A stretch of 64,000 nucleotides of DNA from a virus. A program made the position numbers and the translations under genes. This document shows, one piece after another, positions 203-480 of this stretch; position 1 is the first letter of the stretch; every line of letters starts with the position of its first letter. The DNA lies in IMG/VR virus record IMGVR_UViG_3300046001_006965, positions 1 through 64,000 of that record; one strand, given 5' to 3'. The notes below the pieces were generated by a model. It made no database searches. It saw only the letters and a program-made list of their open reading frames with translations, and was not told where the DNA came from.

Positions 203-480
203 ACTATTTTTTTTTAAAGATTACCCACGCATAAATATTCGTTTGCCACACCCGTGTTGGCTATTGTGTGGGATAGCTTTTCAGCCATTGTAGTTCCCGT
301 GTTGTCCAATAGCACAATTGAACCCCCCAAAGCATAAGTCAGCGTAACCCCCGCCCTTGTTTTTACGCTATAATTAAATCCCAAAGCAAGACCGTTCGGT
401 AATGTCAATGTGCAACTTGCAGTCAATAAAATAACTTTGCCGTTGTAGGTATTGTCAAGCGTTGTGTTTGTGCCGATTTT
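1..480. repeat. Direct repeat copy 1 of tail-fibre-tip module (copy 2 at 50983-51461)
   Basis: 1-127 identical to 50983-51109; 214-480 differs from 51195-51461 only at synonymous sites. Confidence 0.97.

Follow-up and report, generated by a model that had tools for sequence, protein, structure and literature searches.

A constant end domain shared by siphovirus- and myovirus-type fibres as a candidate docking site for an exchangeable adhesin in Flavobacterium phages

Branched receptor-binding complexes and the locus in the window

In anchor-branch complexes, two receptor-binding proteins (RBPs) are joined, the second docking on a branching domain of the first through a short N-terminal peptide that is conserved; as outlined in two accounts, this arrangement was validated experimentally, by engineering, in Klebsiella podophages (PMC13352976, PMC6872550). 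Complexes described under this heading include G7C gp66/gp63.1, the RBP1/RBP2 pairs of KP32, KP34 and K11, and the K1-5 adaptor gp37 (PMC6872550). In the current study, we analysed the first 64 kb (hereafter the window; positions 1 to 64,000 of IMG/VR record IMGVR_UViG_3300046001_006965) of a single 82,969-bp contig; the window contains two sets of phage genes, most of them on the minus strand. A siphovirus-type fibre of 544 amino acid (aa) residues and a myovirus-type fibre of 430 aa encoded in this window end in an identical domain of 88 residues, and a gene for an adhesin-like protein, also of 544 aa, lies in the same module (Table 1). From comparative genomics we give about an even chance to the reading that this end domain is an anchor-branch-type docking socket for an exchangeable adhesin.

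The likeness to anchor-branch complexes consists in a virion-fixed first protein with a constant domain and a nearby gene for a variable second protein with a short conserved N-terminal peptide. The anchor-branch peptides are group-specific and 7-29 residues long, according to the outline given in PMC6872550, and the peptide of the present locus has 12-13 residues. The differences are equally clear. The branching domain of the described complexes is a T4 gp10-like XD2/XD3 jellyroll near the N-terminus of RBP1, whereas the domain in question here is an XD1/gp9-type sandwich or a knob at the extreme C-terminus; moreover, the present module belongs to Flavobacterium hosts and to several tail types, includes a conserved small protein, and has many secretion leaders on its adhesins, while docking is suggested here by comparative genomics. 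Anchor-branch complexes are a better analogue than T-even gp37/gp38, although we do not file the module as a member of that group given its other domain type and its location at the other end of the protein.

The T-even analogy had been drawn by a sequence-only reading of the window, and it is apt in so far as a separate gene just after the fibre gene has a product that is proposed to sit on the fibre end and to bind the host. However, the body of the present adhesin is modular and multi-domain, the conserved element is a short N-terminal peptide, and neither the adhesin nor the 128-aa protein encoded beside it matched a gp38 or tail-fibre-assembly family in Pfam (E ≤ 0.01); the analogy is not supported. 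The gp38 protein is also far smaller than the 544-aa adhesin. Horizontal exchange of fibre C-termini together with tail-fibre-assembly genes is familiar from P2, Mu, P1 and lambda, and the present locus is similar in that a fibre gene's 3' part, along with the genes that follow, is common to unrelated siphoviruses and myoviruses. In those phages, however, the shared end is receptor-binding and diversifies, whereas here the shared end is invariant and the diversity resides in the next gene.

In the docking arrangement that we favour, the 88-residue domain would be the constant end module of an 'anchor' fibre and, alone or together with the 128-aa protein, would serve as the place at which a second host-binding protein, the product of a gene just downstream, attaches. 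This adhesin would plug in by means of its 12-13-residue N-terminal peptide (MNLIAREIFSLKS in the window), while its body would be swappable, being leucine-rich-like with a DUF285 domain in the window and of unrelated classes elsewhere; the 128-aa protein may be an assembly helper or part of the joint. With socket and peptide held constant by purifying selection, unrelated virions with long non-contractile or contractile tails could mount the same adhesin. Should this be correct, Flavobacterium phages (lake phages in this case, the host genus also including fish pathogens) would use a standard socket-and-plug across tail types, based on a domain whose type and position are unlike those in the Klebsiella and E. 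coli complexes, and host range would be tradable between different kinds of virus. It would furthermore explain the mosaic breakpoints at fibre loci and supply a rule for recognising host-range genes in uncultured Bacteroidota phages, namely to find the peptide.

Table 1. Features of the docking module and its surroundings in the window
Feature	Position	Strand	Remarks
88-residue C-terminal domain and stop, copy A, siphovirus-type fibre	214-480	-	protein-identical to copy B
88-residue C-terminal domain and stop, copy B, myovirus-type fibre	51195-51461	-	protein-identical to copy A
544-aa fibre-like protein, siphovirus-type	214-1848	-	variable N-terminal/shaft part and constant end domain; ends KIGTNTTLDN...YLCVGNL
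430-aa fibre-like protein, myovirus-type	51195-52487	-	same ending as 544-aa fibre; after baseplate genes
544-aa adhesin-like protein	49154-50788	-	N-terminal conserved peptide, region common to adhesins of other loci, DUF285 in C-terminal half
Proposed docking peptide MNLIAREIFSLKS	50750-50788	-	codons 1-13 of adhesin gene; alignment and motif survey
128-aa small gene, conserved module companion	50798-51184	-	candidate roles: assembly factor or adaptor
Small gene copy A, first 67 codons, cut by contig start	1-202 (coding 2-202)	-	91% amino acid identity to 50798-51184
145-aa protein with hydrophobic segment	48716-49153	-	left edge of module common to both phages; 86% identical to 142-aa protein of L006
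Lysis-region genes, including 185-aa muramidase (47315-47872)	46647-48719	-	Pfam Muramidase, E 7.7e-29
Exact 127-nt repeat, assembly-graph junction	1-127 = 50983-51109		identical prefix of exactly 127 nt

The identical fibre ends and their fold

A scripted comparison bore out the statement of the sequence-only reading that the two fibres are identical over their last 88 residues, and the reading's manual count of about 24 silent differences proved to be exact: the 267 nucleotides (nt; 88 codons and the stop) differ at 24 positions in 22 codons, distributed over the whole length and all synonymous. The Nei-Gojobori method gives 65.5 synonymous sites and a synonymous divergence (dS) of 0.445 with zero amino acid change. 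As 24.9% of the possible single-base changes in this stretch are synonymous, the probability of 24 out of 24 arising by chance is approximately 3e-15. In BLASTP comparison, 90 of 93 residues are identical between positions 452-544 of the 544-aa fibre and 338-430 of the 430-aa fibre. The fibres are otherwise unrelated, apart from a single aligned stretch of 76 residues with 29% identity (E 6e-9), which bears out the earlier description of them as very different. No Pfam or PHROGs family was matched by the 544-aa fibre, while the 430-aa fibre gave weak PHROGs matches to phrog_34369 (E 5.5e-14) and to phrog_2952, 'minor tail protein' (E 2.4e-6). A constraint at the nucleotide level, exerted by an RNA or an overlapping gene, was considered as a cause of the protein identity and was rejected because the synonymous sites vary freely.

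The window is not alone in combining identical protein with diverged silent sites. In related loci retrieved from IMG/VR (numbered with the prefix L), the domains of L027 and L029 share 100% of their residues at a DNA identity of 87.1% (dS 0.86), while those of L008 and L011 are 98% identical in protein (dS 0.45). When the ratio of non-synonymous to synonymous divergence (dN/dS) was restricted to pairs with at least 80% protein identity, it was found to be 0.006-0.17 in almost all of the pairs listed, and the end domain is under purifying selection. Family-wide medians over all pairs were set aside as unreliable, since synonymous sites are saturated and unrelated shaft or body segments are forced into the alignment.

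A HMMER search of 1.84 billion cluster representatives retrieved 246 proteins with the domain at E ≤ 1e-3, 90 of which at E ≤ 1e-10. Among the 150 carriers listed, protein length ranges from 57 to 2859 aa, domain identity extends down to approximately 30%, and in most the match reaches the C-terminus or lies no more than a few residues from it; the module is found in siphovirus-type, myovirus-type and other backgrounds. For cultured phages, a tblastn search with the domain in 50,697 phage records gave no match at E ≤ 1e-3, and a single-protein scan of GTDB genomes, by which only close relatives could be reached, yielded one relative in Flavobacterium sp. UMI-01. The module was not described among the papers listed by a literature search on fibre docking in Flavobacterium phages.

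An AlphaFold2 model of a 93-residue version of the domain, built with 91 aligned sequences, is all-beta with a mean predicted local distance difference test score (pLDDT) of 97.1. Its best match among solved structures is residues 197-291 of 9ny6_C, the C-terminal knob of the capsid spike gp52 of Pseudomonas phage Pa223 (Z 13.7, root-mean-square deviation 1.7 Å, 91 of 93 residues); other matches are 9f4a, a baseplate protein of Klebsiella phage KP1 (Z 10.1), and residues 79-177 of CBA120 TSP4 (7rej_A, Z 8.6), with further ones to CpaA, a tailspike of phage Solidus and the insertion domain of StcE. T4 gp9 was matched by Foldseek only, and weakly (E 0.16, probability 0.63). The first unrelated structures score Z 3.6 or less, and the best Foldseek E value is 2e-5. 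The match covers the whole domain, is clear of background, and identifies a beta-sandwich of the XD1/gp9 or knob type that is known from fibre and baseplate proteins of phages. The fold recurs in at least 246 BFVD models at E ≤ 1e-3, and many of these are named as tail or virion proteins. The Pa223 knob and the XD1 domains of TSP4, gp9 and gp10 have the same beta-sandwich fold as the end domain, although sequence identity is 13-17%, the knob belongs to a capsid decoration and XD1 is internal and treated as a spacer, and a shared fold does not show function. By its fold, the domain belongs with the sandwiches of phage fibres and baseplates, which leaves undecided whether it is a socket or a receptor-binding knob.

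The adhesin peptide and its proposed upstream partner

The adhesin-like protein has a leucine-rich-like body with DUF285 (PF03382; E 1.4e-15, 57.6 bits against a cut-off of 25) at residues 393-477, this being its only Pfam family, while its PHROGs matches are confined to two unnamed families. Its first 300 or so residues are 31-35% identical to proteins encoded downstream of the domain in L002-L004. It is without a secretion leader, so that the proposed docking peptide stands at its very start.

Scans of IMG/VR produced 41 loci, 38 of which have downstream open reading frames (ORFs) of at least 60 aa. In 29 of these 38, the fibre gene is followed, directly or with the small gene in between, by the gene for a protein of 133-1069 aa that has the motif xNL[FIV]ARQx[FY]xxK, or one close to it, near its N-terminus (12-13 residues); looser relatives of the peptide are present at the protein start in six of the remaining nine. 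Since the motif was derived from these same loci, a specificity control was run, in which it was found in 29 of 708 ORFs of at least 60 aa in all six frames of the loci, 28 being the downstream proteins. In the contig that contains the window, one of 245 such ORFs has the motif, namely the adhesin. Beyond the peptide, the bodies of these proteins fall into unrelated classes.

The 29th ORF of the control is a second such protein encoded just upstream of the fibre in L006, which derives from the same IMG/VR contig as L002. It occupies positions 102-962, is 286 aa long and includes the sequence MNLITREIFNLK; one phage can consequently encode two plug-in proteins for one kind of socket.

Over 30 loci, the Mantel correlation of domain distance with peptide distance is 0.57 (P 5e-4), as against 0.22 with body distance. 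Where domains are at least 85% identical (31 pairs), the peptides are 69-100% identical while the bodies are 8-65% identical, in many cases at the level of unrelated sequences, with the exception of the near-duplicates L037/L038 (100%).

The reverse survey is the stronger test than this co-variation. Here, the N-terminal region of one adhesin class (A6) served as query and the domain was sought within 5 kb, giving 39 loci. Wherever the motif is present in its strict form (15 loci), the domain lies immediately upstream, and six more loci with the domain have looser peptides, whereas the motif is present in none of the 18 loci without a detected domain (Fisher P 2e-6, an upper bound on significance as the loci are related). 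With filters off, one of these 18, L077, displayed a distant domain upstream (E 1.5e-7) and L078 a marginal one (E 0.045). In 11 of the 18, the same adhesin body stands behind other N-terminal peptides, each of which has its own upstream protein family: INPxxNVxKKYRQ is paired with a family of 185-187 aa in four of four loci (L050, L057, L067, L075), KRALGFMNK with a family of 105-201 aa in three of three (L053, L065, L073), and NPxQxFEYGK with fibres of 711-996 aa that share another C-terminal segment in four of four (L071, L078, L082, L084), this segment being a possible remote relative of the 88-residue domain. The first residues of the adhesin thus match the protein encoded upstream, as would be expected of an adaptor peptide, and the pattern suggests several parallel socket-and-plug systems. 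The sequence-only reading had spoken of a possible universal socket, which is too strong a term for one domain family among other pairs of upstream protein and peptide. Its proposal that the domain docks a separately encoded adhesin draws support from the survey of downstream genes, from the peptide co-variation and from the other peptides found where the domain is absent, while the binding itself we infer. A complex prediction with three copies each of the 93-residue domain and of adhesin residues 1-70, both with alignments, returned a score of 0.00, which speaks neither for nor against docking.

Several observations weigh against a docking socket. Of the 40 loci in the main scan, 21 come from one metagenome and several of them are near-duplicates, and the co-variation of domain and peptide could in part be plain linkage between adjacent genes. 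Furthermore, the best fold match is a distal knob, described in the Pa223 preprint as a tumour necrosis factor (TNF) fold with a suspected role in host recognition. The TSP4 match, in turn, falls on XD1: the TSP4-N paper, in outline, assigns residues 79-177 to this domain, which is common to gp9 and gp10 and treated as a spacer, partners being docked on XD2 and XD3. The fold searches returned rows on TSP4 XD1 and, weakly, on gp9, and none on TSP4 XD2/XD3, unlisted families being possible. Finally, 17 of the 28 distinct peptide-bearing proteins in the related loci have a leader of 15-18 residues, and such leaders predict export, an unexpected fate for part of a virion that is put together in the cytoplasm; the other 11, including that of the window, are leaderless.

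The fold matches raise the alternative that the domain is a distal knob, receptor-binding or trimer-nucleating, for a conserved Flavobacterium surface receptor, which was exchanged between the two phages as an ordinary fibre tip with its downstream cassette, in the manner of P2, Mu, P1 and lambda, the downstream proteins being second RBPs attached elsewhere on the virion. We consider this less likely than a docking socket. The match to the C-terminal knob of a trimeric spike (9ny6_C), the extreme C-terminal position in most listed rows, the frequency of the fold in phage tail and fibre proteins and the fact that the small gene travels along, as a fibre chaperone would, are all in keeping with it. 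Receptor-binding tips usually diversify, however, whereas the dN/dS values of almost all close pairs are low here; the small gene is more often located after the adhesin gene than beside the domain, and has no tail-fibre-assembly family match; and the type of adhesin peptide follows the type of upstream gene. In addition, the two virions share only the module (at the level of a 90%-identical DNA repeat), which makes another common attachment site hard to name. A docking socket would presumably be trimeric.

The leaders occur in L004, L007, L008, L010-L012, L014, L015, L017, L019, L020, L025-L027, L029, L030 and L032. The proteins in question are encoded by the first gene after the fibre gene, the start codon overlapping the fibre stop (ATGA) in most, and all 17 leaders have a basic start (MRK or MKK), a hydrophobic core (mean hydropathy 2.3-3.2), a small residue (A, G or S) at -1 and Q at +1. 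They were called by these sequence marks of a Bacteroidota Sec/signal-peptidase-I signal, the Q-rule, which is reported as a signature of Sec/signal-peptidase-I substrates of Bacteroidetes (PMC5837995, PMC10653852). Predicted cleavage would expose nearly the same N-terminus that the leaderless proteins have from the start. Two possibilities follow from the leaders, either of which would be notable: the adhesins join the virion beyond the cytoplasm, or they do not belong to the virion.

If they are not virion parts, the downstream proteins would be exported lysogenic-conversion or exclusion factors of the envelope, encoded in a recombination hot spot behind the fibre gene, and the peptide would be the mature N-terminus required for an envelope function. 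Besides the leaders themselves, this option is in line with Q-rule proteins encoded by Porphyromonas phages, which one account describes, in brief, as of unknown function and reads as potential outer-membrane modifiers (PMC10367356). DUF285 is moreover a family of unknown function named after Mycoplasma proteins, and leucine-rich-like surface proteins are known from bacteria. Against it, the leaderless proteins have the same peptide at their start and a leaderless cytoplasmic adhesin has no obvious envelope role, while the match of peptide type to upstream gene across four different pairs is left unexplained; we regard such a non-virion function as improbable. If, on the other hand, the adhesins do reach the virion, those of many Flavobacterium phages might be exported by Sec and matured in the envelope, where the signal would be cut and the glutamine thereby exposed at the N-terminus would, under the Q-rule, be cyclised by the host; only then would they dock through this N-terminus on the fibre ends of released or releasing virions. 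This extension of the docking reading is a long shot, and would amount to an extracytoplasmic last step of tailed-phage assembly that could be used by siphoviruses and myoviruses alike.

Two phages, one module and their neighbouring genes

The first gene set (element 1, position 1 to approximately 46.5 kb) encodes a 1209-aa tape measure, a major head protein, a portal and a large terminase and, beyond these structural genes, replication and recombination genes and an integrase (45196-46401); no sheath was found among the 14 element 1 proteins searched. The second (element 2, from approximately 51 kb onward) encodes a sheath, a tube, a 658-aa tape measure and baseplate hub proteins. The labels siphovirus-type for element 1 and myovirus-type (Mu-like) for element 2, which agree with the sequence-only reading, hold as far as tested.

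To what extent these gene sets belong together was addressed by comparing window positions 46001-53000 with Logan contigs (k=31) from two lake-water metagenome runs, X1 and X2. In X1, the probable source, positions 46001-49193 are covered by one contig without a difference at a depth of 869, the siphovirus fibre end is located on a 16.7-kb contig (depth 866.6) whose loose end continues as window 481-510, and the myovirus occupies a 31.7-kb contig from 51279 onward at a depth of 209.7. A 2146-nt contig of X1 (depth 965.6) links siphovirus variant letters at 51110-51308 to 49164-51109, which places the small gene and the adhesin gene behind the siphovirus fibre. The siphovirus path closes on itself, positions 1-50982 behaving as a circle with an exact overlap of 127 nt; 127 is a common maximum k-mer size of de Bruijn assemblers. 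In X2, which is a different sample, a 35.2-kb contig (depth 48) connects the myovirus, by way of its own version of end domain and small gene, to the same adhesin gene. This contig differs from the window at 19 positions, of which the 16 listed are all within the adhesin gene and give rise to five amino acid changes. Left of approximately 49193, a variant at myovirus-like depth (229 in X1, 53 in X2) matches the window at only about 85% identity over 48728-49193 and is unlike it farther left.

Both phages therefore carry the domain, the small gene and a 99-100% identical adhesin gene in metagenome contigs, and the suggestion that the two virion types share an adhesin is upheld at the level of the genes. 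Against a dS of 0.45 for the end domains, the adhesin genes show 99-100% identity, from which it follows that the adhesin gene and the 3' part of the small gene moved recently between lineages whose end domains have long been apart without a change in protein. If the docking reading is correct, such an adhesin behind long-diverged end domains is an exchange caught in the act; the presence of the adhesin in both kinds of virion would follow.

The window itself is most likely an assembly chimera of two separate phage populations, which we read as having been joined through the shared module of approximately 2.3-2.8 kb. It follows that the ownership of genes across the junction is not readable from the contig alone and that the gene order there is not to be trusted; the myovirus's own continuation left of approximately 48,728 is absent from the contig. 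Tandem prophages were rejected as the cause of the single contig because of the depths of 869 versus 210 and the self-closing siphovirus path. In formal terms, the depth gap might also come from in-situ replication of one of two neighbours.

A chimeric contig, which begins with an exact 127-nt repeat of an internal stretch and unites populations of depth 869 and 210, invites the objection that the identity of the fibre ends is an assembly or sampling artefact, one copy having been partly copied onto the other by assembler collapse. We consider this scarcely credible, since the 24 differences are spread over all 267 nt, X1 and X2 each have separate k=31 contigs for either version, collapse removes differences and does not create purely synonymous ones, and other loci have the same pattern.

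The small gene was reported by the sequence-only reading to follow both fibres, and this is the case, the two copies having 91% amino acid identity over 67 codons. The exact 127-nt repeat indicates that copy A is truncated by the assembly break and not by biology. The first 25 codons of the two copies are strongly diverged, with six residue changes and near-saturated synonymous sites, whereas the next 42 codons are identical; such segments of unlike divergence make the locus a mosaic of three segments with different histories. Homologues of 114-151 aa are encoded in 23 of 41 related loci, before or after the adhesin gene, and more commonly after it than next to the domain. The 128-aa protein matched zero Pfam families (E ≤ 0.01) and zero PHROGs families. 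Its AlphaFold2 model (pLDDT 70.6) has four long strands and two helices and resembles nothing clearly in PDB representatives (best Z 4.6) or in BFVD (best E 0.014), and an Atlas search, with a poor Atlas model (pLDDT 0.38), gave no usable feature match. A loose end at 50967 in both X1 and X2 belongs to a third variant, which shares the small gene only from 50967 rightwards and is unlike the window leftwards; this variant probably represents a further phage that combines the module with an adhesin of its own.

Left of the module, the lysis genes at 46.6-48.7 kb are assigned to the siphovirus-type phage, a reading based on their depth of 869, which is that of the siphovirus fibre contig, and on the same order in the Flavobacterium sp. 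UMI-01 prophage (L085). This prophage locus encodes a 632-aa fibre ending in the domain's family, a 231-aa protein that bears the peptide and a small protein of 128 aa. In the prophage the gene order is also equal to that around the siphovirus-type fibre, the gene of which follows those for the 1209-aa tape measure and for virion proteins of 736 and 673 aa. Between the gene for the 673-aa virion protein and the fibre gene lies a small block on the opposite strand (1953-2969, plus strand); the first protein encoded in it has 78 aa, begins with a hydrophobic stretch and contains an HYHEHK motif, and a similar protein of 71 aa is encoded at the same place in the UMI-01 prophage (L085 2810-3236, minus strand there).

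In the structural block of the myovirus (61578-61856 and 62335-62790, minus strand), a 92-aa endonuclease VII-like ORF adjoins the sheath gene, and a 151-aa protein has matches to endolysin-family PHROGs. The siphovirus-type element has a tRNA-Met gene (anticodon CAT) at 22797-22868 on the minus strand. Four copies of a 45-nt element with the inverted repeat AACATATTTTGCAA...TTGCAAAATATGTT are located between gene blocks of the siphovirus replication region (23490-23534, 26054-26098, 32102-32146 and 39881-39925), and this element looks like an operator or promoter.

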